Positions 1-63,556 of a stretch of 64,000 nucleotides of DNA are shown here, in pieces. The DNA is taken from the IMG/VR virus record IMGVR_UViG_2740892439_000009, one strand, 5' to 3'. The stretch is from a virus (lineage: Duplodnaviria; Heunggongvirae; Uroviricota; Caudoviricetes). How positions within the stretch are numbered: the first letter of the stretch is position 1; the number at the start of each line of letters is the position of its first letter. The notes under the pieces were generated by a model that was not told the DNA's origin, searched no databases, and saw only the letters and a list, made by a program, of their open reading frames with translations. The position numbers and the translations under genes are program-made.

Positions 1-3000
1 GCCGGCAGTTACGTGATCGCGCATTACAAAGCCTTCGTGAAAGTCAATGCTGATACCACCATCACTATGGCACCAGGGTCTCGTGTTTTTGATGATACGG
101 GCGCCGTGTACGTGAACGGTGTTAGGGTTGCCTTTGGTAATGCGAGCTGGAATACGGTTAGCTTTGATCTGAAAGCTGGCTGGAGCACGGTTGAGTTCTT
201 GGTGAACCAATGGACTGGTCAGGCTTACATTAACCTCGGCTTTAAACTGTCCGAGAAGGTAGCCCAGCTGAATTCTGCTCTTGGGATGAACGCGCTTTCG
301 AATGCCATTAGCGCCGTCACCTCAAACGTCAGCACCGTAGGTGATCGCGTCACGAGCACCTCACAGAGCGTTACTGACCTGCGAAATAGCCTCGAACAGA
401 CCAACGCAAATCTAGCGAATAAGGCAGATGCACAGGCGCTGTCTACGCTGCAAAATACGGTCTCCAAGCAGGGGGATACGATTTCCAGCCAGGGTAACAG
501 CATCACGAACCTGAATAACACCCTGACCGCTGCCAGAAACGCCGGTGACAACCTGATCCCGAACTACGATTTCCTGCAGGGTGCAACTGCGTGGGATATC
601 CAGTATCCGGCGGGCGTCGCTTTTGGCAACTTCGGTGATGGTAAGGCTGGGGTTAAGCTGAACCGGACGACCACGACCAGCCCAGGCATCTTCTCCAACA
701 ACAACAAGCCGCTGCCGCTTAATGGTCAGCGCAAATATCGTGTTGTGGTTAAAGCCAAGGGCGTGTCCGGGGCGATGAACATGTTGATCCGGCGCCAGAA
801 CAAAATCGGCCAGACCGACAGCAATTATGAAGATAAAAACGTCACACTCACCAGTGAGTGGCAGACCATTACCTGGGAAACTGGGCTTACTGCCTCTAAC
901 GCTGATGGTCAGAACTTTAAGCTTTACGCGCACCCGGCTAATGCCGAAATCTGGGTTGATACCTTTAAGGTCTTTGATATCACGGATGAGGTGAAGATCA
1001 AGGCTAATAGCGATGCGCTGTCTACGTTGTCGAGCACGGTGACGCAGCAGGGTGACAAGATCACCAGTCAGGGCAACAGCATCACTAAGTTGACCAATGA
1101 CCTCGAAGTCGCTGACGCAAACATCGCGAAAAAGGCCGATCAGTCGGCAGTCACTACGCTGACAGGTCGGGTAGAGAAGACGGAGTCCGGTCTGACGGCG
1201 GCGAACAGCAACATTACGTCGCTCAGCAGCTCTCTGAACCAGCAATCCAAACGCGGCGCCAATCTGCTTCCTGATGGCACTTTTGAAAGCTACGCGGTTG
1301 GCCATAATCTATCAAATAATCGCGTTATCGTGACCACTGATGACTCGCATGGCGGTAGTAAGTGCATCCGTGTGACGCGTCCGAATGATTACAACGCTAA
1401 CGCAACTGATAACAGCGATAATCACATTTTCAGCGGGTTCCAGGTTCGCGATAACGCAGTCTTCTATATGGAATGCTGGGTTAAGCTGGATGCCAAGAGC
1501 ACCGCTATGGCCGAGAATGCGCAGATCTCCATTGGCTTGTCGCTCCAGTATCAGGATAACTCCTGGCAGTGGCCAGCAGTAACCAAAGCGGCGAAAGATC
1601 TGTCTACAGCTCAATGGACGAAGGTTTCTGGTTACCTGAAATCAACGAAGAGCGGTATTAAGCAGGCAATGGTGAGGATTTCTATTCCTAACGTTAGCAG
1701 CGTTAAGGCGGGAAACTCATTCCTCATTGATGACCTGGTCATTACCGAAGTGACTGATGCCTACAATGCGCAAAGTACAGCAGACGCTAATGCCAATGCG
1801 ATTTCGACACTGGACTCGACCGTCTCCCAACAGGGTGACCAGATCACCAGTCAGGGTAACAGCATCACCAAACTGACAAATGACCTGGCAACGACCAATA
1901 ACAACGTCAGTAAAAAAGCGGATCAGAGCGCTTTAAGCGTGTTGTCCGGGCGCGTCGATCAAACAGAATCGGGCTTATCCTCTGCGAATAGCAGTATCAC
2001 TGCGCTTAATTCATCTGTACGCGCAGGGAATGCGACAAGTGGCGATTTGATTAGCAACCCGACATTTGACCCAGAGTTTAGTCAGATGGGCTTCACTGTG
2101 GTTTCCAGCTCGTCTGAGGGCGTGCCAGCCAATTGCCCATACGCTTATGTTGCACGCATTGCGGCTCGCGACCATCACCCCAATTTTGCTGCTATTCCGG
2201 CGACATTGGGGGATGTCTATGAAATGTCTGCTCTCGTCGCGTGTGGCACCGGCTCCGCTGATTTCAACCTGTATCTCGGAACCGCAACACGGCCAAGCGG
2301 CAGCGTGGGCGCGCCTCTGTCATCCGGCGGCAACCGCAAGGCGTCGGCCACATGGCAGCGAGTAACCTGGCGATTCAAAATTACTCAGGGGATTGTCGAT
2401 CGCGGCTTCTTCCGTCCATTCCTGCAAATTAACCAGTCCAGCCCATTCGGCACCGTCTGGTATGTGACTGACTGGCATCTGCGGAACGTGACCGACTCCT
2501 CCAAAGTCCAGGATTCCCTCGACGCCACGGCGAAAGCGGTTGATTCGCTGACCTCTACGGTAAATCAGCAGGGGGAGAATATCTCCAGCATTGGTACACG
2601 TACTACCAATCTTGAGAATAATTTGAGAACAACAAATGCAAACGTTGCTCAAAAAGCGGACGCCAATGCTCTGACGGCACTGACCAACCGTGTTACCCAG
2701 ACCGAAAAAGACATTAACTCAACGAGTTCTTCTGTCACGAATCTGAACAACAAGGTTGATGCCATTTCTGTTGGCGGTACAAACCTGATTAAGAACTCTG
2801 GCGATATGACCGGCTGGTCGAACGTTACCAGCGACACGTATCGTGGTAACGCGGTAATTGGCGCAACTGTAAAAGCCGGCTCCGGCTACAAGGATCTGCG
2901 GGAAATCACGCTTGAGTCGCCGGTCGATGCAGGTGAGTACGTTTACAGCTTCTATGCAAAAGGCGGTGTTGCTGGCCAGATTATGACGGCGTTCTTCTAC

Positions 3001-5424
3001 AATCCGAACACTACAACGTCTATCGAGACCAGCCAGGGTGCGAAAGGTAACAACAGTGATGGCCGTGCGCAGTTCACGCTGACCACTTCATGGTCCCGCT
3101 ATTGGGTTAAGTGGAAACAGACACCTACCACGAGTACCAAGCGCCTGATTCTGTGTCGTATCGAGAGCAATACCTCCAAAGACCAGACGGTGTACATCAA
3201 CAGTCCGAAGTTTGAGGTAGGTAACGTTGTTTCCGACTGGAACGAGTCTCCGTCTGATAGTGCCAGTGCGTCGGCTGTGGACTCGCTGACAACGAAAGTG
3301 AATCAGCAGGGCACTTCCATTAGCTCTATCGGAAATCGCACCACATCGTTGGAAAACGGGTTATCGACAGCTCAAAACAATATTGCCAAGAAGGCTGATG
3401 CTTCTGCATTGCAGGATCTCCGGAACACGGTGACATCTCAGGGTGATGATTTAACTGCGGCGAACAGCAGCATTACCAGCCTGCATGCCTCGATGAACCG
3501 TCGCACTGTGTTTACTGTCACTGCACGGGGTAATGGCAACAGCGTTACCCATGGGGTGTTTGATGAAAGCGGCAAGAATCTGTTTACCCCTGGTCGCAGC
3601 TGGGCGCTGGTCACTTTTGCAAAACACAGCGACGGATCAACGGTGATTGCGACCTCCAAAACATACGATGTCTTTGGCAGCGCGAATAATGGCGCCACGA
3701 TGTCGGCTGATATCGAGGCACTGGCCAGTGGGACTTACGTTTGCGTCCTGACATTCGATGAGCCAACTGGCAACCGAGGTAAGGTGTTGTCTGCCCTGGA
3801 ATCTCTTGGTGGCACTTCCGAAGTCGTTAACTCTCTGCCGTATCGTGGCGCCTACATTCTCCTTGGCCGCAAAGGTATGAAGCCGGGCGATGGTCTGGAA
3901 CTGCGTGCGCCAACCGGTGGCGACGGCACCGCCCACATTTCGACCTCAGTCGAGTTTGTGAACGGGGTAATGATGGGGCTGGGCGCCGCTGGTGGTGTGA
4001 TGATGAAGGCTGATGCGAACGCATCTGCAATTACCACGCTCCAGAATACAGTGAAGACCCAAGGGGATAATATTGACTCCCTGAGCTCCTCGACAACAGC
4101 GCTGGAAAACAGCCTTGCGTCCAGTAACGTCAGCGTGGATGCAGCAAGCCAGATCCCCGGTAACCTGATCGTAAACCCGTCTTTTGAGCGTGGTACGGAG
4201 GGCTACACTGGTTGGAGCGGTATTGCCACGGTGGCAACGCTGCAGGTTCCACATCTTGGCACCAAAGCCGCCAAACTAGCGGCGGGTGGTTCTGCAGGCG
4301 TGGGCCAGAAGATCTCCTTCAAAAAGGATCGGTCGTACAAAATTGGTATTTGGGCAAAGCAGGACCCTAATACCACCATTCAGTCGACCGACAACACAAA
4401 ATTCCGTGTGGCTGACGGTACTGGCCTGATTGCAAGTAAGGTTTATGGTCCGTTCACCTCGAACTGGCAGGAGGTGTCATGGACATGGAAGGCGACAAAG
4501 GATGTCCTTGCTGACGTTCAGTTCACTGCTTTCTTGTCAGCCGGCGCGATGTACTTTGATGATTTTTACGTCGTCGATGTGACCGACTCAGTTGAAACTC
4601 AGGCGAACTCGAGTGCGATCACGAAGCTCGATAGTCGTGTGACCAAGACAGAGAATGACATCACCAGCCAGGGCAGCCAGGTTACGCAACTTAAGAATGA
4701 CCTTGCTACCACAAACACAAATGTTTCGAAGAAAGCGGATGCAGCTGCGTTAACGGCATTAACGAACCGCGTCACGCAGAATGAGAAAGAAATTGGAACC
4801 CAGAGCAGCCAGACAACTTCGCTCAAAAACTCTTTGAGCACTGTTCAGGCAATGGGAAGCAACCCGTGGTTTGATGGTTCTCTGGAGACGTACTCCGAAA
4901 ACCAGCAGATCAGCGGCTCGCGCGCGGTCGTCGTCAGCTCTCAGAAACGAAGCGGAACGAAGTCGTTGCGTGTTTCCCGCGGCGCCGGTGAGGGCGGAAA
5001 CAGCGATAAAACCATCGGTAAGTGGATTGCTCTGCGTGAAAATGCGGTATTCCGCATTGAACTCTGGGCGATGATGCCGGCAGATCAGTCGCCATCATCC
5101 GGGTGGTCAACGCTCGTTGGTTTGCAGACCCAAAACGCTGCCAACAACAATAACTGGCCGACGGCAATCACTATCAATGAAGCCGCATTGGGTGCAAGAG
5201 GCGCATGGAAGAAATTCACCGGTACGCTCCGTGTAGCCGCTGGCCACACTCGCGGCGCATTTTGGGTATCTACCGCGGCACAACTGGCACTGGTACACCG
5301 GGGTATGATCTGTATATCGATGACGTTGTTGTCACCGATATCACCGACGCAAAAGAGGCTCAAGATTCGGCTAATTCGAACGCATCCGCGCTCACCAGCC
5401 TTACCTCACGTGTTACCAATGTAG
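1..5424 (+). CDS. Lateral (L-shaped) tail fibre protein, LtfA-like; 5'-partial upstream segment, frame lost near 5270
   Basis: Frame open from base 1. About 8 diverged tandem modules, each with a coiled-coil stretch (QQGDxITSQGNSITKLTNDL..KKADQSAL) followed by a beta-rich domain ending in (F/Y)xDDxxVxDVTD. The last ~50 codons of this frame look like nonsense. Confidence 0.75.
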   Translation, partial: AGSYVIAHYKAFVKVNADTTITMAPGSRVFDDTGAVYVNGVRVAFGNASWNTVSFDLKAGWSTVEFLVNQWTGQAYINLGFKLSEKVAQLNSALGMNALSNAISAVTSNVSTVGDRVTSTSQSVTDLRNSLEQTNANLANKADAQALSTLQNTVSKQGDTISSQGNSITNLNNTLTAARNAGDNLIPNYDFLQGATAWDIQYPAGVAFGNFGDGKAGVKLNRTTTTSPGIFSNNNKPLPLNGQRKYRVVVKAKGVSGAMNMLIRRQNKIGQTDSNYEDKNVTLTSEWQTITWETGLTASNADGQNFKLYAHPANAEIWVDTFKVFDITDEVKIKANSDALSTLSSTVTQQGDKITSQGNSITKLTNDLEVADANIAKKADQSAVTTLTGRVEKTESGLTAANSNITSLSSSLNQQSKRGANLLPDGTFESYAVGHNLSNNRVIVTTDDSHGGSKCIRVTRPNDYNANATDNSDNHIFSGFQVRDNAVFYMECWVKLDAKSTAMAENAQISIGLSLQYQDNSWQWPAVTKAAKDLSTAQWTKVSGYLKSTKSGIKQAMVRISIPNVSSVKAGNSFLIDDLVITEVTDAYNAQSTADANANAISTLDSTVSQQGDQITSQGNSITKLTNDLATTNNNVSKKADQSALSVLSGRVDQTESGLSSANSSITALNSSVRAGNATSGDLISNPTFDPEFSQMGFTVVSSSSEGVPANCPYAYVARIAARDHHPNFAAIPATLGDVYEMSALVACGTGSADFNLYLGTATRPSGSVGAPLSSGGNRKASATWQRVTWRFKITQGIVDRGFFRPFLQINQSSPFGTVWYVTDWHLRNVTDSSKVQDSLDATAKAVDSLTSTVNQQGENISSIGTRTTNLENNLRTTNANVAQKADANALTALTNRVTQTEKDINSTSSSVTNLNNKVDAISVGGTNLIKNSGDMTGWSNVTSDTYRGNAVIGATVKAGSGYKDLREITLESPVDAGEYVYSFYAKGGVAGQIMTAFFYNPNTTTSIETSQGAKGNNSDGRAQFTLTTSWSRYWVKWKQTPTTSTKRLILCRIESNTSKDQTVYINSPKFEVGNVVSDWNESPSDSASASAVDSLTTKVNQQGTSISSIGNRTTSLENGLSTAQNNIAKKADASALQDLRNTVTSQGDDLTAANSSITSLHASMNRRTVFTVTARGNGNSVTHGVFDESGKNLFTPGRSWALVTFAKHSDGSTVIATSKTYDVFGSANNGATMSADIEALASGTYVCVLTFDEPTGNRGKVLSALESLGGTSEVVNSLPYRGAYILLGRKGMKPGDGLELRAPTGGDGTAHISTSVEFVNGVMMGLGAAGGVMMKADANASAITTLQNTVKTQGDNIDSLSSSTTALENSLASSNVSVDAASQIPGNLIVNPSFERGTEGYTGWSGIATVATLQVPHLGTKAAKLAAGGSAGVGQKISFKKDRSYKIGIWAKQDPNTTIQSTDNTKFRVADGTGLIASKVYGPFTSNWQEVSWTWKATKDVLADVQFTAFLSAGAMYFDDFYVVDVTDSVETQANSSAITKLDSRVTKTENDITSQGSQVTQLKNDLATTNTNVSKKADAAALTALTNRVTQNEKEIGTQSSQTTSLKNSLSTVQAMGSNPWFDGSLETYSENQQISGSRAVVVSSQKRSGTKSLRVSRGAGEGGNSDKTIGKWIALRENAVFRIELWAMMPADQSPSSGWSTLVGLQTQNAANNNNWPTAITINEAALGARGAWKKFTGTLRVAAGHTRGAFWVSTAAQLALVHRGMICISMTLLSPISPTQKRLKIRLIRTHPRSPALPHVLPM

Positions 5425-6581
5425 AAGGGCAGGTGACATCCCAGGCGTCTCAGCTGTCCTCTTTGACGTCCCAGGTGAATGATGCGTCTTCGAAGGTTGA
5501 TCAGATGGCGCAAACCATCACCAACAACGAGAAAACGCAGTCGTCGCTGAATACCAGCTTGCAGTCGCAAATTGATGCGCAGGCATCGGCAAACATCAAG
5601 AACCAGACGGAGTTGAATAACGCCACCACTTCGATGGCGGCAATTAAATCAACTCAGCAGACTCAGGCCACAACGATTAGTGCACTGTCTCAGCAGCAAA
5701 CGAATTTAACGGCCCAGGTAGGAGGCCAGTCAGCCGAGCTGCAGGAGCTGAAGAAAACGGTTGTTGAAAACGGCAACGTTAACAGCACCTGGATGGTCAA
5801 AATGGAAACCAACAGCAACGGTAAAAAGTATGCTGCTGGTATAGCTTTAGGTATCGATGGCAAAAATTTGCAGAGCCAGTTTCTGGTTCAGGCTGATCGC
5901 TTCGGCTTAATCAACACCTCTAACGGGAATACGACTACACCTTTCGTTATCGAAAATGGCGTTGCGTATATTAATGCCGCTGTCATTAAAGATGGCTCGA
6001 TCACCAATGCGAAAATTGGAGGCGAAATCCGTTCTGACAATTTCGTTAATGGTTCAAATGGCTGGAGAATTGGAAAAGACGGTAGTTCACAGTTCAACAA
6101 TGCGATATTCAGAGGTCATATTGAAGCGCGCAGTGGTACGTTCAAAGGAACCCTGGAAGCTCAAAACTTTATTGGTGATATCGCTGTAGCTCGGCGTTAT
6201 GCGGATTTATCGTTCCGTCGTAACAACACCGTACAGCGTGATGGTCGTTACCAGAACCGCGGATACGGTATGACTATTGTGCTAAGTTGTACCCTGATAT
6301 ATCAGGTTACTGGGGGGAATGAGGATCGTAACGGTTATATTGTTGAAATGACATTTAACGTTGGCGGTCAGGAGGTAACTCGCCGTTTCCCGATCAACCC
6401 GCGAATGAATATGGGCTCCTACTCGATGGAGTTTCGTTTTGCAGCGGATATTCCAGGCAACTATGACAACGTCCCGTTCTTTGTAAGAGCACGTGGTCGG
6501 GATGCTACTTGGGACTACCAGTGTTATGTAGAAAACATCACTGCCACTGCTTTCCGTACAAACAGCAACTCATTCAGCTAA
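5205..6581 (+). CDS. LtfA continuation in the -1 frame (C-terminal coiled-coil and distal tip domain)
   Basis: This frame carries the expected module end TGTGTPGYDLYIDDVVVTDITDA, then a further coiled-coil repeat and a beta-rich C-terminal domain. A hairpin GGCGCCCC..GGGGCGCC follows the stop. Confidence 0.7.
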   Translation: MEEIHRYAPCSRWPHSRRILGIYRGTTGTGTPGYDLYIDDVVVTDITDAKEAQDSANSNASALTSLTSRVTNVEGQVTSQASQLSSLTSQVNDASSKVDQMAQTITNNEKTQSSLNTSLQSQIDAQASANIKNQTELNNATTSMAAIKSTQQTQATTISALSQQQTNLTAQVGGQSAELQELKKTVVENGNVNSTWMVKMETNSNGKKYAAGIALGIDGKNLQSQFLVQADRFGLINTSNGNTTTPFVIENGVAYINAAVIKDGSITNAKIGGEIRSDNFVNGSNGWRIGKDGSSQFNNAIFRGHIEARSGTFKGTLEAQNFIGDIAVARRYADLSFRRNNTVQRDGRYQNRGYGMTIVLSCTLIYQVTGGNEDRNGYIVEMTFNVGGQEVTRRFPINPRMNMGSYSMEFRFAADIPGNYDNVPFFVRARGRDATWDYQCYVENITATAFRTNSNSFS

Positions 6582-9841: not shown

Positions 9842-10234
9842 ATGCACAACGCACTGAACGCATCCCGTTCTATACAAACGATCCGTGATTGCACGAGCGT
9901 TATTGAGACTCATGTGCTGGCTCAGCACAAGATTGAAGTCCGTAAGCTCAACAATGACGCGGTTGATCTAAAAGACACTCGCTTCATCATCACCTTTAAA
10001 AATGATGTTGAGAAGCCGTGTGCCAGCGTAAAGCCGTTAGCGGAAGCAATCTTCCTGAACGGACGTGTACGTTTTGTCGTAAAACCTGATAAGCAATACC
10101 CTGAATTTTTGCGTCATTTAAAAGAGTTTTCTGAGGTGATAGAACATTCTATTCGTCGCTTCGTACTTGGTCATGGTAGCATTAGTAGTCATGTAAAGGC
10201 TGATAGATCTGCTACCAAATGGCTCCTACACTAG
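9842..10234 (+). CDS. Hypothetical protein
   Basis: ORF with SD-like GGTGGAAACATG; no recognisable motifs. Confidence 0.45.
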   Translation: MHNALNASRSIQTIRDCTSVIETHVLAQHKIEVRKLNNDAVDLKDTRFIITFKNDVEKPCASVKPLAEAIFLNGRVRFVVKPDKQYPEFLRHLKEFSEVIEHSIRRFVLGHGSISSHVKADRSATKWLLH

Positions 10235-10971
10235 ATAGCTCATACTCTAAAGATCTTAGCGAGTTTCCTCATAAAGGGGAGACTCTTGTATCTCGTTTCG
10301 GTTACATAATCAACGAAGCCTCTCTCTTCAAAATTTCTGAAATCACCATTGTTGATCCCGAAGATGATATAGTTTTGTACACCCGGATAGAACGGGTTGG
10401 TGCGCTTGATCAGGATCAGTTGATGGAGTTCATCTTGGACAAGGCTGATGACGATATTCCTGAAGAGGATATCATCAGAGAACTTCTTCGCTCCGGTATA
10501 ATCGATGAAAGCAAAAATTCTATAGTAGGCAGAATTGCCTTGCGAGAATACAGCTTCGTTGAAGATGGAAATGAGGTTGAATGCTACCAAGTGGCAGGTG
10601 TTGAGACTGTGAAAGCTATTCGTCAGAGAGGGCTGTGCCATCGCACATACCTGTTCTTGCTTCACTGGTACGAACATCTAGTTTGTGACGATATGCAGAC
10701 AATCCCTGGTGCTAAGATCTGGGCAGGGCCTCTCATGCGAACCGGCGATGTGCGTATATACAATGCCAAAACAGAAACGTTCGAGGATGTGTTAGGTGAG
10801 TACGGGATGGGGAAAGAAACCGGATTTTTGCCGTGGAACAGAGGATTGTTGCTTGATGCAGAGTTAAGCTCTTGGCTCCCAAACAAAGTGCAAGTTAACG
10901 TTCAGAAATTTATCGTACTTATCATCTCCCGCAAAACAAGAACTCCAGTAGGTTTATACCTAAAAGATTAA
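10219..10971 (+). CDS. Hypothetical protein
   Basis: Overlaps the upstream ORF by 16 nt (probable operon); followed by a strong terminator. Confidence 0.5.
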   Translation: MAPTLDSSYSKDLSEFPHKGETLVSRFGYIINEASLFKISEITIVDPEDDIVLYTRIERVGALDQDQLMEFILDKADDDIPEEDIIRELLRSGIIDESKNSIVGRIALREYSFVEDGNEVECYQVAGVETVKAIRQRGLCHRTYLFLLHWYEHLVCDDMQTIPGAKIWAGPLMRTGDVRIYNAKTETFEDVLGEYGMGKETGFLPWNRGLLLDAELSSWLPNKVQVNVQKFIVLIISRKTRTPVGLYLKD

Positions 10972-10976
10972 AAATA

Positions 10977-11002
10977 AGGCGACTTTGGTCGCCTTTTTTG
11001 TT
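10977..11002 (+). terminator. Rho-independent terminator
   Basis: GGCGAC..GTCGCC hairpin followed by TTTTTT. Confidence 0.6.
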
Positions 11003-11147
11003 AACAGCCATTGATTCTCGCCTAAAAATTCTAAGGCAGCACCTACCATTTAACCTTTACACCACAGCCGTAGGCATTTAGGCTATATCACATATAAGAA
11101 AACAAGTTGTTTCAGACGATAATTATATACGCAAAGGGAACTCTCCA

Positions 11148-11816
11148 ATGACCAAGATCTTTGTGGTTGGCGGCACAAAGGGCGGGCCTGGCAAATCCAC
11201 CGTTGCCCAGCAAATTGCCGTTTGCCTGAAAGTCAAAAAGAAGAAGAAGGTTTATATCACCGATATAGATATTCAGCGCACGACAACGAGCTGGTGTGAA
11301 GACCGTCGACAGAACGAAGACCTTGAGCTGATTCCTTTTGCATACGTTCAGGATGACATCATTAAGCACCTAAAATCGCTTCAGGGTAGAGCTGAGTTTG
11401 TAGTGGTAGATGCTGGTGGCTTCGACTCCGAAATTCAGCGACAAGCGATGCTGATGGCTGACGTTATCATTATCCCGCTGCGTCCTAAGCGTCGTGATTT
11501 GAAATCTTTACGTGACATCGATCCTATTATCGACAATGTTCGCAATGTAAACGATAAAGTGAAGGTCCGCGCGGTCATGAACCAGTGCCCGGCTTTGCCA
11601 TCACAAGTGTCTCGCATTCTGGCGGCTAAAGAGATTGTCGAGACGTTTGGCATCGAGTCTGCGCCAGTCAATCTATATAACCGCAACGTCTACGATGATG
11701 CGGAAGAGTCTGGTCGTTCTATCTTCGAAATGACCGGTAGCGAGCGCGACAAAAAGGCGGAAGCCGAGTTTGAAGAATTTGTAGATTATCTGTTGAGTCT
11801 GGAGGAAGAAGAATAA
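11148..11816 (+). CDS. parA: ParA-family partition ATPase (small, type Ib)
   Basis: Deviant Walker A GGTKGGPGKST; size about 220 aa; followed by a small RHH-like gene. Confidence 0.8.
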   Translation: MTKIFVVGGTKGGPGKSTVAQQIAVCLKVKKKKKVYITDIDIQRTTTSWCEDRRQNEDLELIPFAYVQDDIIKHLKSLQGRAEFVVVDAGGFDSEIQRQAMLMADVIIIPLRPKRRDLKSLRDIDPIIDNVRNVNDKVKVRAVMNQCPALPSQVSRILAAKEIVETFGIESAPVNLYNRNVYDDAEESGRSIFEMTGSERDKKAEAEFEEFVDYLLSLEEEE

Positions 11817-12175
11817 TGTCCATGAAAATGGGTGACCTAGCAAAGCGCAAAGAGCCTGATGCACCGGCTAAGAACACAACTCCTTTGCGCCAACCAGTCA
11901 GACCACAAGGACGCCCGACTCGTGGCAAAGAGAAAATTAAAAGCCGCACCATGTCACTGGAAGACGAATACTTCGAGCTTCTGGAAATGATGAAGTTTAT
12001 CCCTCGTTTCGAGAAGTTCACCCGCTCTGATGTGATTCGTGCTGCTATTTTCCATCTGGCAGAGAAGTCGCCGCAGGAAATCGAGGATATCGTGAAACTT
12101 AACGAGGCGATCACTGCTGCCGACGTCACGATGCGTACCGATGAAATCAAACGCGAGTTGATGAAGAAAGGTTAA
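11816..12175 (+). CDS. ParG-like ribbon-helix-helix centromere-binding protein (candidate)
   Basis: Basic disordered N-terminus and C-terminal RHH-like segment; start overlaps the parA stop; terminator hairpin GAGGTGC..GCACCTC downstream. Confidence 0.5.
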   Translation: MSMKMGDLAKRKEPDAPAKNTTPLRQPVRPQGRPTRGKEKIKSRTMSLEDEYFELLEMMKFIPRFEKFTRSDVIRAAIFHLAEKSPQEIEDIVKLNEAITAADVTMRTDEIKRELMKKG

Positions 12176-12219
12176 TTTTATTGAGGTGCTGCTTGGCACC
12201 TCTTTCTATAGGTTCCCTA

Positions 12220-12939
12220 ATGCTCTACAAATATATTGGAAGTGAAGATTCGCAAAAAGTGTTACGTAACCTCAAACGGTTTGTAGAGGACGGCACTATC
12301 TCTGCTAGCGCACCTTCTTCATTCAACGACCCATCAGAGTTCAAAGTTTCGATAACGATGGGAGGTACAGAAGTGGAGCGCCGGAAACACTTTGAAGACA
12401 ATGGATGTAAGGATTTTTCCTTTGAAGACTGGGATGCTGTAGCTCCTGAAGCTGCAAAATCGTTGGCTGTGGATTTGCGGAAAGAATCATTAGGGGCTTT
12501 TGGTGTGGTGTGCTTGTCACCAAACGAAGATAACATCTTGATGTGGTCACATTACTCAGTGTCGCATAAAGGTTTCTGCATAGGCTTTGATGATGATTTT
12601 GTTACCTCTATTGAGGGGTATCACAGCTTTGATAATGTGAAATATATACCTTCTGTTCCCGTGTTCGATGAAGTTACAGATGAGTTTAAGGTACTTTTTG
12701 ATAAGCTCTTTTTCTACAAGCACGAATGCTGGAAATATGAGGAAGAACAAAGGGTTATTACTAAAAAAATAGGCGCTCAGGCATTTGATAAGAAATATAT
12801 TAGAGAGATCATTCTTGGACATAACGTTTCTCCTGAAGTAGAAGAATATGCCCGGACACAGCTAGACACGAGCATCGAGGTTTACAAAATGAGTACACCT
12901 GATGATGGTTATCTTCTTGTCAAAGAAAAGCTGAAGTAG
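12220..12939 (+). CDS. DUF2971-like protein
   Basis: N-terminal LYKY..FNDPSEF signature as recalled for DUF2971; AT-rich relative to flanking genes. Confidence 0.4.
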   Translation: MLYKYIGSEDSQKVLRNLKRFVEDGTISASAPSSFNDPSEFKVSITMGGTEVERRKHFEDNGCKDFSFEDWDAVAPEAAKSLAVDLRKESLGAFGVVCLSPNEDNILMWSHYSVSHKGFCIGFDDDFVTSIEGYHSFDNVKYIPSVPVFDEVTDEFKVLFDKLFFYKHECWKYEEEQRVITKKIGAQAFDKKYIREIILGHNVSPEVEEYARTQLDTSIEVYKMSTPDDGYLLVKEKLK

Positions 12940-13005
12940 CTCCAGACTTTCCTCAAATGATTATGTTGGGCGCTTTTCTTATTGAACTGGTTAGTGAGGC
13001 TAATA

Positions 13006-14178
13006 ATGGATTTGTTCTCAACCAAAATAGCAAAAAACAAGCTGCACGAATCTTTTAAACAGATTTATCAAGATAATACATATGCTCCAGTAAGAGAAGT
13101 GATACAGTCGTGGGGGCGTGGGTTACTGGAGCGTAGCGGTGAGCAGACTAAATTCGTTAAAGAGTTTCAGACAACCTTCAATTCCGCCTTATGGGAATTG
13201 TATCTGAACGAAATGTTTATTCGTCTCGATTATTCTGTCGACTACACAAAAGACAGTCCCGATTTCTGTGTTACTACACCGTCAGGCTACCAGTTTAACG
13301 TCGAAGCTGTGATATCAGATCGGCCACATAATCCACCTGCAGGTGCTCTTTTTAGCGAATCAAAATTCAAACATCAATCAACGCTAAAATTAATCGGAAA
13401 AATCAAAGACAAACATGATCTTTTTACAGGAGTTAATGGCAAAAAATTCCCGTACTCTACGATGTCTCATGTAGTTAATAAGCCGTTTGTTCTGGCGCTT
13501 GCACCCTTTGACTCCGATTTATCATTGTCTCAAAATAACACAATCATCAATCGAGTGTTGTTTGGCATTGAGGAACCTACCACCAGAAATTTGGTGACTG
13601 GCAGCCAAACTAAAGTTACCTCAATCAAAAAGAATGAAGACGTTGAAATTCCATTAGGTATATTTACTAACGACTCATATAAAGAAATAAGTGCGGTTAT
13701 TTTCTCCACCACCGGCACTTTTGGAAAAGCCGTGGTTCAAAGCGGTATCGGTAGATATGTAAGGTCAACACGATATCGAGCCATTGATGTGAATGATTTC
13801 ATCGCCAATGAAGGGATGAAAAACGAGGGAAAGCACACACAAAGGATAGGACCTGATCATTTCATCACTACATATCGGCATTTTTTAAATAACGAAGTCA
13901 CTGGTGCGGATATTGTAGTTTGCCATTCCACTGCTCATGAAGAGACGCACTTTGACGGCCTTCATATTTACTACAATCCTTTTGCGACAGTGCCACTGGA
14001 CAGAAATATTTTCTTCCCCCCAGAGATAACTCATAATTTTTACGATATGGAAAAAGAACAGTCTGTTCAGAATCATCCTGATGGAGCGCTGGTATCTAGA
14101 CAGGTTTTTGAACCAACTAGAGCACATTTTAGGTATATCATGAAACATTGGTTTCCAGGCTTTCTAAAAGATGTTTAA
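13006..14178 (+). CDS. Hypothetical protein (about 390 aa) in AT-rich island
   Basis: ATG with GAGG upstream; no recognisable motifs; low GC. Confidence 0.5.
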   Translation: MDLFSTKIAKNKLHESFKQIYQDNTYAPVREVIQSWGRGLLERSGEQTKFVKEFQTTFNSALWELYLNEMFIRLDYSVDYTKDSPDFCVTTPSGYQFNVEAVISDRPHNPPAGALFSESKFKHQSTLKLIGKIKDKHDLFTGVNGKKFPYSTMSHVVNKPFVLALAPFDSDLSLSQNNTIINRVLFGIEEPTTRNLVTGSQTKVTSIKKNEDVEIPLGIFTNDSYKEISAVIFSTTGTFGKAVVQSGIGRYVRSTRYRAIDVNDFIANEGMKNEGKHTQRIGPDHFITTYRHFLNNEVTGADIVVCHSTAHEETHFDGLHIYYNPFATVPLDRNIFFPPEITHNFYDMEKEQSVQNHPDGALVSRQVFEPTRAHFRYIMKHWFPGFLKDV

Positions 14179-15116: not shown

Positions 15117-15159
15117 CTAATACTAGAAAACAATTTGTTTAAAAAACAAAGGAAAGCAC

Positions 15160-16098
15160 ATGACCGAACTTTGCCATACAGGACGCGGGCTGTCCGAAGA
15201 GTTTGATGAAGATTTCCAGAACAGACTGACGGCATATTTTTGTCGTGATCACGAGTTTCTTACTCGTGCGGGAGATCTGGTTGTGCCTAGCCAATTTGCC
15301 AATGCGGCCAATGCCATATTGGTTAATATGGTTTCGGGCTATTACCGTATGTACAAGAGCGCGCCTTCTTCATCTGCGATTCTGGATATGCTTAAGCGCG
15401 CGAAACGCGATAAGACCATCCGTGAGGAACTCTTCCCGGATGTTGTTGCTGCGTTTAAGCGCATCCTTGCAGAAAAATTGTCTGATACCTCGTACATGGT
15501 TGACCAGGTATCCACATTCGCAAAAAGTGTAGCGTTTGATGATGCTCTGATTAAAGCTGCTGAACTGAAAGAGAAGGGCGACTTTCAGGGGGCGATGGCA
15601 ATCATGGCCAAGGTTCAGCAGATAGGCTCGAACGAAGCGACCGGAATCTATGACTACTACACCTCCGCAAGTGAGCGATTGAAAGCGCGTGAATATGAGG
15701 CTTCAGAGGAGTATGTGCCAAACAGCATTACAACTGGACTCCCTCTGCTTGATAGATTGCTGTACCAAAAAGGCTGGGCGAAGCGTGAAATGGTGCTCTT
15801 CATGGGGTTCGCTAAATCCGGTAAATCGACCGCAATGGGTGAGTTTTCCATAAACGCAACACTTGCTGGCTACAATGTTCTGTATCTCTCGCTGGAGGTT
15901 CACACCACCATTTTATCCGACCGTTTTGATGCAAGATTGTCGGAGACAGAAATGTCCAGGCTGGTGGAACGGCGCGATGAGGTTCATCGTAAGTTGGCAG
16001 AGTTGGGAGCACGAAGGGGATTGGTAGTTTGTGGGTGGTTGAGCGTCCGTCAGGAAGTATGTCACCGGCAGATCTGGACCGTATGCTTAACAGCATGA
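15160..16098 (+). CDS. DnaB-like replicative helicase, N-terminal segment with Walker A (frame lost near 16020)
   Basis: ITTGLPLLDRLL..GFAKSGKST resembles the DnaB Walker A region; conserved start context AAAGGAAAGCACATG. Confidence 0.75.
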   Translation: MTELCHTGRGLSEEFDEDFQNRLTAYFCRDHEFLTRAGDLVVPSQFANAANAILVNMVSGYYRMYKSAPSSSAILDMLKRAKRDKTIREELFPDVVAAFKRILAEKLSDTSYMVDQVSTFAKSVAFDDALIKAAELKEKGDFQGAMAIMAKVQQIGSNEATGIYDYYTSASERLKAREYEASEEYVPNSITTGLPLLDRLLYQKGWAKREMVLFMGFAKSGKSTAMGEFSINATLAGYNVLYLSLEVHTTILSDRFDARLSETEMSRLVERRDEVHRKLAELGARRGLVVCGWLSVRQEVCHRQIWTVCLTA

Positions 16099-16499
16099 AA
16101 GCCAACGGCATGGTGCCTGATATGGTTGTTGTCGACTACGCAGATTTGATGCGTGCCAGTTATGACCTTCGTGATGATCGCGCCAACATTCGTAGTATCT
16201 ACACCGATTTACGTGCTCTTTATGACAAACATAACGTTGCTGGAATCACGGCATCGCAGACAAACCGTGAAGGTGGCGCGTCAGAAGTTGCCACAATGAT
16301 GCACGCCGCCGACAACATCGAAAAAGTACGTATTGCTGACCTGGTAATAACGATCAACAAAACCGAAGAAGAAGAAGCGAAAGGAGAGGCTCGTCTCTAC
16401 TTTGCTGGTTCACGTAACCAGCAGGGAGGGATCAGCATTCGTGTTAAACAAAACCTCGAACAAATGCGCTTCATTGAGCGAATCTTAGACGTTACCTAA
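16029..16499 (+). CDS. DnaB-like helicase C-terminal segment (-1 frame)
   Basis: DMVVVDYADLM and QTNREGG motifs typical of the DnaB C-terminal RecA-like domain. Confidence 0.7.
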   Translation: MWVVERPSGSMSPADLDRMLNSMKANGMVPDMVVVDYADLMRASYDLRDDRANIRSIYTDLRALYDKHNVAGITASQTNREGGASEVATMMHAADNIEKVRIADLVITINKTEEEEAKGEARLYFAGSRNQQGGISIRVKQNLEQMRFIERILDVT

Positions 16500-27667: not shown

Positions 27668-29047
27668 ATGTCTAAAAAACGTTCCATCAAAGAGGTTCAG
27701 GACTTCCGTGACAGTGTAAAACGAGTAGTCGCTCTCCTTTCAGGTAAAAACATCCCTGTTGCAGAACGAGGGGACGACGCTTATGTACGCTATAACGATG
27801 ATGGAGAGCCAATTCTCGTAAACATCCCATCAATCCCGGATAACGCAACACCGGCATTGATGAATGCTGTGCGCGGATTTCTCGATCATGAGGTTGCTCA
27901 CATTTTGTTTACCGATATTCGTGTGTCCAACAAAATGAGAGAAAAAGGACGCGTTCCTTCCTGGTCGCTATGGAATGCCTTAGAAGACGTGTTCATCGAG
28001 CGAAAAATGGGGCAGGTCTTTAACGGAACAAGACGTAATCTGATGGCAACTCAGCGCCTTATAATCGAAAAAGTCTTTAAACCAAAGGCTTCAGAGGCTA
28101 TTGCTTATTGTGGCAAAGATCAGCGCGCGCTTTTTCTAAACTTCTTTCTCTGTCCGGTTGTAAGAGCCTGGGATGGCCAAGCACCGTTCGTAGATTTCAT
28201 GGATGAATATTGGCCTGTCATTGAGAAACCAATTTCATTATTAAAAGAACATGGTATCGATGTGGCCGTGCGTAACATGTCTTGCACCGAGGATTGTGTA
28301 AAGGTGGCTGCGACCATAGCTAAGATCCTCAAAGACACTGAAAGTGAAAGCAAAGGTAAGGAGTCAGCTCCGGGAAAAACTTCCGATCCTTCAGACGCTG
28401 ACCAGACGGATGCCTCTGGAGAAAACAATGAAGACAACGAAGATCATGAGACACCCTCATCGTTAGATAATCACAAATCTATCGAATCAGAATCACATAG
28501 TAAGCACAAACATGATAATAACGACAGCGATGATTCAGATAATTCTGAATCATCAGAAACAATATTCGATGATACAGAAAATGATAAAGAGGTATCAGAT
28601 TCTGATGCTTCTGATAACGCGGCGTCAGAATCATTAACCGCTGACCACGAAAAAAGAAAAACGACAGAAGACGGCTCTTCAGATATCCCAACTCCGTCAA
28701 AAATGAGTCTGGAAGAGGCTTTAGAGGAGCTGGATAGCATAGAAGATGAAGTCGGAGGCATGACAGAAGATGCTCTATCCGAAACGATTAAAAGCGAGTT
28801 AACAGAAAGCTCGAAAAGCGAATACAGGCCATACAATCGCTCATACGACTTCATCGGCTCGATTGATCAGGCAGAAGCCATATCAAACGGCTTATTAAAA
28901 CATTCTCCGATATTGATTTGGGAGGATATCCAATCAGCCGCTATCGCATCGTTCCTGAAGGCAACCAGCTCTTCGACAAATATATTGAAAAGCATCTTTC
29001 GTCAGGTGTTTCGTCGACGCTGGCAAAAGACCTGGAGCGAGCAATAG
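27668..29047 (+). CDS. CobT-like protein, N-terminal segment with acidic low-complexity linker (frame lost near 28915)
   Basis: Paired with a downstream vWA segment and a CobS-like AAA ATPase; highly acidic D/E/S-rich middle region. Confidence 0.5.
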   Translation: MSKKRSIKEVQDFRDSVKRVVALLSGKNIPVAERGDDAYVRYNDDGEPILVNIPSIPDNATPALMNAVRGFLDHEVAHILFTDIRVSNKMREKGRVPSWSLWNALEDVFIERKMGQVFNGTRRNLMATQRLIIEKVFKPKASEAIAYCGKDQRALFLNFFLCPVVRAWDGQAPFVDFMDEYWPVIEKPISLLKEHGIDVAVRNMSCTEDCVKVAATIAKILKDTESESKGKESAPGKTSDPSDADQTDASGENNEDNEDHETPSSLDNHKSIESESHSKHKHDNNDSDDSDNSESSETIFDDTENDKEVSDSDASDNAASESLTADHEKRKTTEDGSSDIPTPSKMSLEEALEELDSIEDEVGGMTEDALSETIKSELTESSKSEYRPYNRSYDFIGSIDQAEAISNGLLKHSPILIWEDIQSAAIASFLKATSSSTNILKSIFRQVFRRRWQKTWSEQ

Positions 29048-29775
29048 CAAGCAGAAACAGAGTTCAGTTTATACCGGGCCAGCGTCGGGGGCGCATTCAT
29101 GGTTCTAGTATCTACAGATTAGCAATGAATGATGATCGCGTGTTTCGTAAAAAAGAAGAATCTAAAGCCGTTAACGCCTGTGTTCAACAAGTGATTGATT
29201 TATCAGGTTCAATGAGTGGTATAACGATACAATTGGCTCTTGCAAGTGCATATACCATCGCCGATGCCCTTGATCGAATAAATGTTCCCAACATTATCAC
29301 CGGCTTCACTACATTTGGTAGTCATATGGCGGCAGGAGAACTTAAGGCTGTCAAGTATGAGTTCTCTCGCTTTGAATCTTTAATGCTACCTATCATCAAA
29401 AATTGGAATGAAAAGGTAAATTCTCGCGAAGTTCGCTCACGTATGGGGTGCGTAGGCTACACATTCCCACTTCTTAATAACGTGGATGGTGAAAGCATAG
29501 CCAGCCTTGCATCGTTATTTTCCGGTCGCATGGAGGACAGGAAGATCATGCTTGTTCTGAGTGACGGCGCGCCGTGGGCTGTTGGGAGAGGTTTTGACGC
29601 TCATTTGCGTTCGGTTGCGAAGCAAATTGAAACGCAGACTGACATTGATTTGATGGCAATTGGCATCATGACTGACGCACCGGAGAGATTTTACTCAAAT
29701 CATGCCCTGGTAACGAGCGTTGATAGTCTTGGTTCATCTGTAGTTACTGAACTATCTCGTATCATTTTGAAGTGA
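28918..29775 (+). CDS. von Willebrand factor A domain segment (CobT-like C-terminus, -1 frame)
   Basis: MIDAS motif VIDLSGSMSG. Confidence 0.65.
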   Translation: MGGYPISRYRIVPEGNQLFDKYIEKHLSSGVSSTLAKDLERAIASRNRVQFIPGQRRGRIHGSSIYRLAMNDDRVFRKKEESKAVNACVQQVIDLSGSMSGITIQLALASAYTIADALDRINVPNIITGFTTFGSHMAAGELKAVKYEFSRFESLMLPIIKNWNEKVNSREVRSRMGCVGYTFPLLNNVDGESIASLASLFSGRMEDRKIMLVLSDGAPWAVGRGFDAHLRSVAKQIETQTDIDLMAIGIMTDAPERFYSNHALVTSVDSLGSSVVTELSRIILK

Positions 29776-41848: not shown

Positions 41849-41896
41849 CGCAATTATCTTATTAAGAAAACAATTTGTTTAAAGGGTCAAGAAAAT

Positions 41897-50926: not shown

Positions 50927-52135
50927 ATGATAAGCATCGTAAAACGTAACGGCCAAACAGAGCCGTTATCCGAAGAAAAATACAACCGCGTCGTAATGTA
51001 TGGCGTAGAAGGCATTCGTGGCGTAAGCGCATCCGCTGTAGCAATGGGAGCTGTGGCCAGCATTTTTGATGGGATGACCACCAGCCAGTTGCATGAGGCT
51101 TTGGTTAAATCTGCCGCTGATTTGATCTCACCAGAAGCACCAAATTACTCACAGGTGGCTGCCCGCCTGAACATTTTTAAAATCCGCAAAGATGCCTTCG
51201 GTCGTTACGACTATCCGAACTTCTACCAACACATTGTCAAGAACGTTAACAAGGGCGTTTATGACAAGGATTTGCTGACACATTATTCATTTGAAGAGAT
51301 CGAAGAACTCGGCAATTACATTAAGCCTAAACGTGACGATCTTTTTGGCTATGCGGCTACGGTGCAATTGCAAAGCAAATACCTCGTTCAAAACCGTGTT
51401 ACTGGTGAGATTCATGAGGGGCCGCAACATATCTATATGCTGGTGGGCATGTGTCTGTTCCAGAATTGGGAAGACGACTGCGCTGGCAAAACACGTATGG
51501 AGATGGTCAAAGGTTTCTATGACGTTACAAGTACGTTCAAACTGTCTCTGCCCACACCAATCATGGCCGGCGTCCGTACTCCAACCCGTCAGTTCTCCAG
51601 TTGTGTGCTGATTGAGTCTGGCGATAGTCTGAAAGGGATTAGTGCAGCTTCAGCCGCAATTATCGACTACGTTTCACGTCGTGCTGGAATTGGTATTGGT
51701 TTTGGCCGTATCCGTGCGCTGGGCAGCGAGATCCGCAATGGTGAAGCCACCCATACCGGAGTTATTCCATTCCTGAAGCATTTCCAGACTGCTGTTAAAT
51801 CTTGCTCGCAAGGTGGTGTCCGTGGTGGCGCAGCAACAGCGTTTTACCCGATCTGGCATCTTGAAGTTGAAAGTCTGCTGGTGGTGAAAAATAACCGTGG
51901 TATCGATGAAAACCGCGTTCGCCATCTTGATTACGGCGTCATGAGTAACCGTCTGATGTACCGTCGACTCGTCAGAAGCGAGAACATCACTCTGTTCAGC
52001 CGCATGATGTGCCTGATATGTACGAAGCCTTCTTCACAGACCAGGATCTGTTTGAAAAGCTGTACCATAAATACGAAGCCGATGATTCAATTCGCAAGAA
52101 GTCAGTACCTGCCATTGAGCTGTTCTCATCTCTGA
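50927..52135 (+). CDS. nrdA: Ribonucleotide reductase class Ia alpha subunit NrdA, N-terminal segment (frame lost near 51990)
   Basis: High similarity in pattern to E. coli NrdA through ENITLFS, then nonsense. Confidence 0.85.
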   Translation: MISIVKRNGQTEPLSEEKYNRVVMYGVEGIRGVSASAVAMGAVASIFDGMTTSQLHEALVKSAADLISPEAPNYSQVAARLNIFKIRKDAFGRYDYPNFYQHIVKNVNKGVYDKDLLTHYSFEEIEELGNYIKPKRDDLFGYAATVQLQSKYLVQNRVTGEIHEGPQHIYMLVGMCLFQNWEDDCAGKTRMEMVKGFYDVTSTFKLSLPTPIMAGVRTPTRQFSSCVLIESGDSLKGISAASAAIIDYVSRRAGIGIGFGRIRALGSEIRNGEATHTGVIPFLKHFQTAVKSCSQGGVRGGAATAFYPIWHLEVESLLVVKNNRGIDENRVRHLDYGVMSNRLMYRRLVRSENITLFSRMMCLICTKPSSQTRICLKSCTINTKPMIQFARSQYLPLSCSHL

Positions 52136-53241
52136 TGCAGGAACGAGCGTCCACGGGCCGAATTTATATTGCGAACGTCGATCATATTAACGAGCATGGC
52201 GCTTTCATTCCTGCTCTTGCACCTGTTCGCCAGTCAAACCTGTGTATGGAGATCACTTTACCTACTCGTCCACTGACATTTACCGACGACCCGAACGGTG
52301 AGATCGCGCTGTGCACTTTATCCGCTTTTAACCTCGGAGCCATTCGTTCACTGGAGTCTCTTAAAGAGGTGGCATTCTATGCCGTTGCTGCACTGGATTC
52401 GTTACTGGATTATCAAGACTATCCGATGGAGGCAGCCGAAGTGCCTGCCAAAGCTCGTCGTAGCTTGGGAATTGGTGTAACCAACTTTGCTTATTACCTG
52501 GCAAAGAATGGCGTTCGTTATTCTGATACCGCTGGCAATAAACTGGTGCATGAAACGTTCGAAGCTATCCAGTATTACCTTCTTGATGCCAGCTGCCGAC
52601 TTGCTGAAGCAAAAGGTGAGTGTGACTGGTTTGAGCAGACCAAGTACGCAATTGGTCAGTTGCCGATCGACCATTACCGTTCTTCATTAGACGAAAGTGG
52701 CGAAACCAACTTTGAGTTAAAGATGCCGTGGGAAGAACTGCGTGAACGTATTGCAAAATACGGCCTTCGCAACTCCACACTGACGGCACAAATGCCATGC
52801 GAGACTTCCAGCCAGATCACTAATTCCACCAACGGCATCGAACCGCCTCGTGGCCCGGTGTCGGTGAAATCTTCTAAGGACGGCATCGTTAAGATGGTCG
52901 TGCCTGAGTTTGAAAAACTGAAGGAACAGTATGAATACCTGTGGGATATGCCGGACAACCGCGGCTATCTGACAAAGGTGGCGATCATCCAGAAGTTCTT
53001 TGACCAGGCTATTTCAGCCAATACCAACTATGACCCTTCTCGCTTTGAAGGCGATAAAGTCCCAATGATGACGCTACTGTCAGATTTGCTTCTCGCCTAC
53101 AAGATGGGAGTTAAAACGCTTTACTACCACAACACCAGAGATGGGGCAGGAAAGCGTGATGACGACGAACCGCAAAATCCACTGACGCAAGCTGTAGCCG
53201 TCGAGCCAGAAGATGAGTGCGACGGAGCCTGCAAAATCTGA
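52009..53241 (+). CDS. nrdA: NrdA C-terminal segment (-1 frame)
   Basis: Continues the E. coli NrdA pattern from DVPDMYEAFF to the C-terminal CDGACKI. Confidence 0.85.
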   Translation: MPDMYEAFFTDQDLFEKLYHKYEADDSIRKKSVPAIELFSSLMQERASTGRIYIANVDHINEHGAFIPALAPVRQSNLCMEITLPTRPLTFTDDPNGEIALCTLSAFNLGAIRSLESLKEVAFYAVAALDSLLDYQDYPMEAAEVPAKARRSLGIGVTNFAYYLAKNGVRYSDTAGNKLVHETFEAIQYYLLDASCRLAEAKGECDWFEQTKYAIGQLPIDHYRSSLDESGETNFELKMPWEELRERIAKYGLRNSTLTAQMPCETSSQITNSTNGIEPPRGPVSVKSSKDGIVKMVVPEFEKLKEQYEYLWDMPDNRGYLTKVAIIQKFFDQAISANTNYDPSRFEGDKVPMMTLLSDLLLAYKMGVKTLYYHNTRDGAGKRDDDEPQNPLTQAVAVEPEDECDGACKI

Positions 53242-53346
53242 CATATGGTGGGGTGTATCCCCACCTTCTCTTTGATTTGTAAGCCTTGTTTAAACAAATA
53301 AGATAACAACTTGTTTAAACACATCAAAAAGCAAAAGGAAAAACAC

Positions 53347-63463: not shown

Positions 63464-63556
63464 CGGTTGTTAGTGCATATGCATTGACCGTCTTTGCGTA
63501 AGCAATTTGTTTAACTAGAAAACAACTTGTTTTGACAAATAACAAAAGGAAAACAC

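Follow-up and report, generated by a model that had tools for sequence, protein, structure and literature searches.

The centromeres of classical type Ib partition systems are arrays of many repeats located beside the partition operon. In delta-omega of pSM19035 and IncC-KorB of RK2, the centromere-binding protein (CBP) doubles as a global regulator of transcription that has sites at several promoters of the replicon. Omega belongs to the ribbon-helix-helix (RHH) proteins, and the 7-bp units to which it binds may be arranged as direct or inverted repeats. Here we describe a small operon at positions 11148–12175 of a 64,000-nt stretch of DNA, hereafter referred to as the window, from the Caudoviricetes virus record IMGVR_UViG_2740892439_000009 (IMG/VR). 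The operon consists of parA (11148–11816, plus strand, 222 amino acids, aa) and a downstream gene for a small partner protein, a putative CBP (11816–12175, plus strand, 119 aa). Both open reading frames (ORFs) had been proposed at these positions in an initial annotation and were confirmed here. As judged from its sequence relatives, the window is a phage-plasmid of the SSU5/pHCM2 type. We consider it very likely that the gene pair is a type Ib partition operon, and it is somewhat probable that the partner protein binds a 13-bp palindrome upstream of parA, which recurs at promoters across the phage genome.

The locus resembles the ParF-ParG-parH system of TP228, which likewise combines a small ParA without a DNA-binding domain with a small downstream partner whose N-terminal tail is disordered and whose C-terminal part has a DNA-binding fold, both of these being predicted features in the window partner. 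In TP228, the site is located upstream of and overlapping the promoter, so that one protein both represses and segregates (PMC3130281, PMC7308502), and ParG's N-terminal tail engages ParF-ATP and triggers hydrolysis (PMC7308502, PMC3130281). Unlike ParG, which is 76 aa long, the window partner has 117 aa from its probable start codon and two extra predicted C-terminal helices. Furthermore, parH/OF contains 20 tetramer boxes, whereas the window has one 13-bp palindrome and two TAGGC units. ParA-ParB of pCXC100, also type Ib, is among the closest known systems, but represents a different family and a Gram-positive host. For the phage-plasmid N15, the dispersed sopC centromere sites of SopAB have been linked to phage gene expression (Ravin, Rech and Lane 2008, cited in PMC11652158). 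The N15 system is of type Ia, with a large helix-turn-helix (HTH) ParB and four sites, unlike the type Ib pair, the putative RHH protein and the approximately 14–18 sites, all at promoters, of the window phage.

Residues 8–18 of ParA, GGTKGGPGKST, form a deviant Walker A motif with the signature lysines Lys11 and Lys16, and the protein matched phrog_164, "ParA-like partition protein", in PHROGs (E 4e-51). Its closest solved relative was ParF of TP228 (E 1.2e-10, residues 9–199 aligned). The protein displayed neither an N-terminal extension nor an N-terminal DNA-binding domain, and with 222 aa it falls in the small (type Ib) size class. The family matches confirmed an ATPase of the ParA/MinD type. 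The top match in NCBIfam was ParA_partition, at 115.7 bits under a cut-off of 180 bits. Several homologues have been named MipZ by PGAP, an identity that was not supported: the Pfam MipZ profile aligned with residues 4–132 only (profile positions 2–150 of 262), whereas the full-length matches were to ParA_partition and ParF. In public records, the names given to ParA vary between "MipZ", "AAA family ATPase" and "plasmid stability protein", and the labels of the partner are equally inconsistent, being "RelE/ParE putative toxin" in phage Cyrano (L002, 6776–7135) and "hypothetical" elsewhere.

The two genes meet at TAATG (11814–11818), where the ParA stop codon TAA (11814–11816) shares one base with the ATG at 11816–11818. 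The conserved N-terminus of the partner, M-K-M-G-D-L, maps to the ATG at 11822, located 5 nt past the ParA stop codon, and PGAP places the start at this ATG as well. The true start is thus probably ATG 11822, giving 117 aa as compared to 119 aa from ATG 11816. In the SSU5 annotation, the partner start has been set 69 nt 3' of the ParA stop codon. A ribosome-binding site for the partner, GGAGGA (11801–11806, plus strand), is located within the 3' end of parA and is kept in close relatives, and the partner start ranged from a 13-nt overlap with parA to a 5-nt gap in 11 of 11 relatives read. A twelfth relative, L009 (pM72-2-2 of K. quasipneumoniae), was left out of this comparison since its parA lacks 2 nt of the Walker A region (GGCC--GGCAAATC) and is thereby frameshifted, leaving 48 aa as read, which represents either a pseudogene or a sequencing error. 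Because of the start distances in the relatives and the GGAGG (11801–11805) in the 3' end of parA, the tight coupling is conserved whichever ATG is used, and the translational coupling proposed earlier is plausible with either start.

For parA itself, a Shine-Dalgarno-like AAAGGGA was identified by reading at 11133–11139 (plus strand), ending 8 nt before the ATG. A hairpin resembling an intrinsic terminator closes the operon at 12183–12202 (plus strand), just past the point where the homology to relatives stops (approximately 12171–12177), and a second hairpin of this kind at 10976–10995 (plus strand) follows a variable upstream gene outside the conserved cassette. Both were found in the terminator scan. 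Since such hairpins end both the preceding gene and the partner gene, the pair forms its own transcription unit. A small ParA closest to ParF and a tightly coupled small partner, with their own promoter region and terminator, agree with the type Ib layout described in the initial annotation.

The partner protein matched no Pfam family. It belongs to phrog_5111 ("unknown function", E 4.5e-80), and a single-sequence search against 1.84 billion representatives retrieved only 15 clusters of partner proteins, all of which had an SSU5-like context where the context was read. A partner from Pseudomonas syringae was shown to be a true homologue (hhalign probability 96.4%, E 1.2e-9), and with a profile that included it, the family grew to 124 clusters, most of them proteins from Pseudomonas plasmids. 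In the family-wide layout, an N-terminal motif is followed by a linker of variable sequence that contains a basic patch, and then by a short polar segment, a helix, a loop and a second helix. The N-terminal motif is MGLKDLIRK in the family and MKMGDLAKRK in the window partner, and the polar segment is RTTFSL in the family and SRTMSL in the window partner, where it is part of a predicted beta-strand (IKSRTMSL). In the family alignment, the loop ends in (T/S)RSD and the second helix contains DVIRAG/A. For the window partner, the basic linker after the N-terminal motif was predicted to be disordered, and two further helices were predicted at the C-terminus. The AlphaFold2 (AF2) model placed helices at residues 48–60 and 70–84, after the polar segment, with low confidence for the N-terminal 40 residues. 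Conservation of the partner was slightly above that of ParA among close relatives and below it among distant ones, which is uninformative.

Several weak matches suggest that the partner has an RHH fold. Of the 41 family members, 13 were matched by Pfam RHH_1 (E 0.005 at best), as compared to 2 of 41 for the next recurring family, and the window partner matched the RHH family aCcr1 in NCBIfam (E 2.3e-4). Profile alignments to CopG and to ORF56 of pRN1 were in register for the strand, helix A, the turn and helix B. In addition, two annotation pipelines have named relatives "Arc/MetJ-type RHH regulator" and "ribbon-helix-helix domain-containing protein". Based on these in-register matches and on the co-variation of the predicted strand with DNA repeats described below, the partner is likely to be an RHH protein. 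Structure searches with the partner model gave no match, as expected from a monomer model of an obligate dimer. Searches of PDB by sequence and by profile with the family alignments A1, A5 and A8 gave no significant match, and hhalign gave no signal between the partner and Arc. The Pfam ParG profile did not match any of 16 family members (E up to 10) or 41 members (E up to 0.1), ParG chains were absent from the PDB profile-search matches of the family, and hhalign against a ParG sequence gave a probability of 0.1%. By sequence, the partner is not a ParG. Thus, in the earlier description of a "ParG-like RHH" protein, the RHH assignment gains weak but convergent backing, whereas membership of the ParG sequence family does not hold.

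In hundreds of relatives, the homology begins at 11038–11047 and stops at 12171–12177, which corresponds to a conserved cassette of approximately 1.14 kb (~11041–12177). The flanks of the cassette are variable, and among the genes that relatives carry there are toxin-antitoxin, HEPN and Abi genes. Because the homology is confined to the cassette, an adjacent cis site must be located in 11041–11147 or inside the genes. There was no conservation past the partner stop codon among the relatives, and the conservation of third codon positions was flat across parA and the partner gene, which thus gave no indication of a buried cis element. Nor was a repeat array found next to the operon, as no repeat family exceeded chance in 10900–12300. 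The initial annotation had pointed to 11003–11147 as the place to look for the centromere. The upstream direction was right, but 11003–11040 is not conserved, and the remainder contains a single palindrome of phage-wide distribution and no classical repeat array.

The upstream region contains a strongly conserved 58-nt promoter block (11041–11098, plus strand), which was 79–97% identical to six relatives (90–97% in five of them), as compared to 48–64% for the third codon positions of ParA and 59–85% for the 5' untranslated region. The invariant core (~11053–11113) consists of TTTACA, a 17-nt spacer, TAGGCT and the palindrome AAACAA-G-TTGTTT. TTTACA (11056–11061) and TAGGCT (11079–11084) were assigned by inference as the –35 and –10 hexamers on the plus strand; they were not called by the consensus promoter scan. 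The invariant spacer contains GCCGTAGGC and two copies of TAGGC located 8 bp apart (11071, 11079). Another promoter-like match at 11001–11029 was discounted, since this DNA is not conserved in relatives, and a series of 8-bp phased ACCW/GGCW boxes, seen by eye in 11041–11090, had no statistical support and is variable among relatives in its left part.

The palindrome, AAACAAGTTGTTT (11100–11112), is centred 42 nt before the parA ATG, at approximately +9 to +21 of the inferred transcript, and is a candidate operator or centromere site. The 15 nt around it (11099–11113) were invariant in the six relatives, and the divergent loci L012, L013 and L015 showed 80% identity over this stretch. In these three loci, the SSU5-type partners keep (K/R)SRTxS in the predicted strand and the DNA keeps AAACA-type half-sites, at 30–50% overall identity. 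The exact sequence AAACANNNTGTTT was found 4 times in the window, as compared to 0.14–0.2 expected, and 11 times in the near-identical 113-kb plasmid pECAZ155_2. With one mismatch and a shared flank, about 14–18 sites fit (A/T)AGAAAACAA-N-TTGTTT. The dispersed sites are intergenic, located 20–45 nt before start codons in the same orientation as the gene and approximately 15–20 nt 3' of a GATAAT-like hexamer. The genes behind them include those for a DnaB-like helicase, ParA, NrdB, CobT and a small DNA-binding protein before the terminase, along with many unknowns.

In the window, copies of AAACAATTTGTTT were found at 15128–15140, located 26 nt before the start of the DnaB-like helicase, and at 41868–41880, located 23 nt before an ORF at 41897. 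Copies with one mismatch were observed before the cobT-like gene (AAATAATTTGTTT, 27636–27648) and before nrdB (TAACAACTTGTTT, 53304–53316), and two adjacent copies, AAGCAATTTGTTT and AAACAACTTGTTT (starting at 63500 and 63520, together 63500–63532), precede an ORF at 63557. In pECAZ155_2 (L003–L005), copies are located at 9021, 47330/47355, 56974, 57476, 58418, 58902, 63399/63450, 73224, 73938, 74667, 84884, 96322 and 110681. Palindrome sites were also retained in a remote relative. Since the copies are located at promoters across the phage, the palindrome is a shared operator-like element that is not specific to par. A phage-wide class of promoters, which precedes most operons, was recognized from the –35-like hexamer, which in many cases has GCC(T/G)T after it, the GATAAT-like –10 hexamer and then the palindrome.

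Relatives of the window ParA with 42–46% identity were found on plasmids of Pseudomonas and Pseudoalteromonas as well as in one Agarivorans chromosome, and a small overlapping ORF is located downstream of each. The operons of the plasmid homologues have repeats on their flanks, and one of these operons adjoins a replicase gene. The uncharacterized Pseudomonas plasmid operons (L020, L023, L024 and L026) resemble the window in that both proteins are homologous, with the N-terminal motif and the predicted strand-helix-helix core, and in having a palindrome approximately 40–50 nt before the ATG. They differ in that the half-sites are repeated on both sides and clustered at the operon (within the 5–7 kb read), whereas only one copy adjoins the SSU5-type operon and the others are spread over the phage genome. 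In L020, where the strand is FVRTTFSL, the centre of ATAACTTATGTAAGTTAT is 38.5 nt away from the ATG on the upstream side, and TAACTTACGTAAGTTA is located directly past the partner stop codon; no further copy of these units was found elsewhere in the 6.6 kb read. L026 has the same strand, and both loci have TAAGTTA/TAACTTA heptamers at 9-bp spacing around the operon, which in L026 form three clusters within approximately 560 nt upstream and one cluster right after the partner stop codon. Different repeats accompany different strands: TGCGCAAGT arrays in L023 (KRTNFSL), CGCAC arrays in L024 (KRVNFSL) and AT-rich palindromes in L025 (TPTTFSL). The L023 arrays include GCGCAAGTTGCGC, whose centre is 50 nt before the ATG. 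Thus, the repeat sequence changes with the predicted strand, which supports the strand as the DNA-reading element and the repeats as the sites of the partner. A perfect upstream palindrome is centred 38.5–50 nt before the ATG in L020 and L023, and 42 nt before it in the window.

Based on these comparisons, we favour, with moderate confidence, a type Ib partition operon whose partner binds the 11100–11112 palindrome, and assign the same confidence to this palindrome as the binding site of the partner. A dimer of the putative RHH CBP would bind AAACAAGTTGTTT, just 3' of the promoter, as its primary site, and the beta-ribbon (K/R-S-R-T-x-S) would read the AAACA-type half-sites. Binding at this position would both autoregulate the operon and nucleate the partition complex. 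The N-terminal peptide MKMGDLAKRK, which is conserved and common to the partners of related ParAs, may contact ParA-ATP on the nucleoid and stimulate hydrolysis, as the ParG tail does for ParF, and the nucleoid-bound ParA-ATP would move the partition complex.

If the partner binds the par palindrome, the other copies should be bound too, and these copies may also be CBP sites, because the palindrome has the same position at the other promoters. It is possible, although we put this forward only tentatively, that the partner is both a partition protein and a phage-wide repressor at approximately 14–18 promoters, with a centromere dispersed over the genome. A single RHH protein would then perform plasmid segregation and silence lytic and replication genes in the prophage state, as a type Ib, phage-borne counterpart of omega and KorB and of SopB-sopC in N15. 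The likeness to omega and KorB, which belong to plasmids and not to phages, lies in the CBP as a regulator of several promoters, which is only a hypothesis for the window partner. Such a coupling of segregation to phage gene control by one small protein would also provide a handle for curing. The phage-wide palindrome is the part worth an experiment, the rest of the operon being mostly ordinary.

Several observations weigh against binding of the partner at the palindrome. The operon has one 13-bp palindrome and no copy past the stop codon, unlike the Pseudomonas homologues, and with the two TAGGC units it falls short of a type Ib array, the other palindromes being located kilobases away. Two distant SSU5-like loci, L014 and L018, keep a similar strand but display no clear palindrome at the equivalent place. 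As the palindrome is phage-wide, a separate phage repressor could own it. If the CBP, which has to be present in lysogeny, occupied a repressor site at +10 of promoters for lytic and replication genes, it would be a factor for the maintenance of lysogeny, which is a large claim.

The strongest alternative, which we find less probable though far from negligible, is a classical local type Ib system in which the partner binds only the par-specific block at 11067–11083, perhaps extending to 11098. The block, with GCCGTAGGC and the two TAGGC units between the –35 and –10 hexamers, would then be both operator and centromere, and the AAACAA palindrome would belong to another phage-encoded global repressor that also keeps the par operon under phage control. 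Global repressors of phage-plasmids with many dispersed operators are known, an example being the C1 repressor of P1. The conservation of 11041–11098, far above that of synonymous sites, is in line with this alternative. The helicase promoter belongs to the same class, but between the same two phages the corresponding stretch did not align: in a Klebsiella relative, the palindrome at 15128 is kept and the rest of the helicase promoter has diverged beyond alignment. Conservation of the block in the par but not in the helicase promoter indicates a constraint beyond shared promoter features, which includes the normally free spacer. This extra conservation calls for a par-specific explanation. Furthermore, GCCGTAGGC is retained in the distant L014 promoter, and tandem 8-bp units are typical of RHH sites, an example being the tetramer boxes of ParG and their 4-bp spacers (PMC3130281). 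However, two TAGGC units are far below the number in known type Ib centromeres, the divergent loci L013 and L015 lack the block yet keep both the strand residues of the partner and the palindrome, and the palindrome at this distance from the ATG is par-specific in the Pseudomonas homologues.

The sole obvious candidate for such a global repressor is an HTH_19 regulator beside the integrase (26719–27105, minus strand). We rejected it as the owner of the AAACAA palindrome, since its own control region contains a different palindrome, GGTAAGTGCTTACC, which is weak evidence against it. This palindrome is perfect and located at 27137–27150, with GGTAAG/CTTACC half-sites at 27257 and 27323, and together these probably represent the operator set of the HTH_19 regulator, distinct from the AAACAA palindrome. 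If the AAACAA palindromes do not belong to the partner, they still define the operator set of another global regulator of the phage group.

That the pair is not a partition system at all, but an ATPase with a regulator that, for example, positions or regulates phage replication or gene expression, is improbable. Stable inheritance would then depend on copy number, toxin-antitoxin modules or other genes. Our literature search found no stabilization data for any SSU5-like element, and no paper that characterizes the partition genes or operators of SSU5/pHCM2. The score of ParA below the NCBIfam cut-off for ParA_partition could also be taken to favour such a role, as could the related pair in the Agarivorans chromosome (L021, 4001–4979). 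There, a ParA with 43% identity and a small partner with a weak RHH_3 match are located between a PilZ gene (pilZ) and hslVU. The 8.7 kb read there contained neither plasmid nor phage genes, and the context is not obviously that of a plasmid. By contrast, ParF, the best structural relative, is a partition ATPase, and close relatives of ParA are located beside replicase genes on plasmids with flanking repeat arrays.

The plasmid distribution of the pair also speaks for partition. The parA and partner genes were found together in about 790 plasmid records (PLSDB), so that replicons of approximately 110 kb, presumably of low copy number, are kept as plasmids. The 774 plasmid records matched by the cassette are circular, mostly non-mobilizable and about 105–120 kb in size, encode a RepB initiator along with tail, capsid and terminase genes, and occur in Klebsiella, Escherichia, Enterobacter, Salmonella, Citrobacter, Cronobacter and Shigella. 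The nearest phage records to the cassette were SSU5, Cyrano, PhiR41_1 and CMS-2020a. Plasmid pECAZ155_2 (113 kb) was 97–99.7% identical to the window over most of its length and encodes a RepB initiator plus tail, capsid, portal and terminase genes, consistent with the plasmid prophage state suggested in the initial annotation. The annotations of this complete relative include no other partition ATPase of the Walker, actin or tubulin type. It also encodes two ParB_N-domain proteins beside an ABC-type ATPase near the terminase (L003/L004, 48904–50887), an arrangement that does not resemble a partition locus.

The pair always has the lysis genes on one side and the genes for replication (helicase, primase, ligase) on the other, even where the partner is only 30–40% identical. 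In each genus, the number of plasmids carrying the partner was almost equal to the number carrying the phage helicase, with essentially no SSU5-like plasmids that carry the helicase but lack the partner. Thus, the pair belongs to the core of this phage group. Phage-plasmids of the SSU5/pHCM2 type, which can carry resistance genes, are frequent in clinical Escherichia, Klebsiella, Salmonella (S. Typhi among them), Enterobacter and Shigella. While the annotation of ParA in SSU5 and the phage-plasmid family were already known, the family link of the partner, the limits of the cassette and the candidate site are new details. The analysis thereby yields a minimal partition cassette (~11041–12210), a family for a "hypothetical" partner and a concrete 13-bp candidate site.

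As far as the sequence shows, an addiction module with the partner as a RelE/ParE-type toxin can be dismissed: it is suggested only by the depositor's label in phage Cyrano (OV696614.1), and neither the partner nor its relatives matched RelE/ParE in Pfam, NCBIfam or PADLOC, the upstream gene encodes a Walker ATPase and not an antitoxin, and the recurring weak match of the family is to RHH.

The genes around the cassette differ between relatives. Directly 3' of the par operon, the window encodes a DUF2971 protein (12220–12939) that matched the PADLOC candidate PDC-S31 (E 5e-38), followed by a second defence-type gene for a 398-aa protein (12982–14178) with a match to PD-T7-5 in PADLOC (E 1.5e-139). 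Upstream of the cassette, two ORFs of unknown function (9842–10971; phrog_2594 and phrog_3307) are replaced by other genes in pECAZ155_2, to which the homology breaks at 9845 and 11041. The cargo at the two flanks in relatives includes a KacT toxin-antitoxin, HEPN/ApeA and Abi_2, and since it differs at both flanks, the par cassette is located between two exchange hot spots. Plasmid pECAZ155_2 also encodes an FljA-like "repressor of phase-1 flagellin" (L004, 3582–4106; Pfam E 5e-81).

Several long genes in the window are split into overlapping ORFs, namely the helicase (15160–16499), the cobT-like gene (27668–29775), nrdA (50927–53241) and a tail protein gene (13–6581). The comparison with the near-identical plasmid revealed many single-base gaps, which together with the split genes suggests indel errors in the assembly or early decay; parA and the partner gene are intact.

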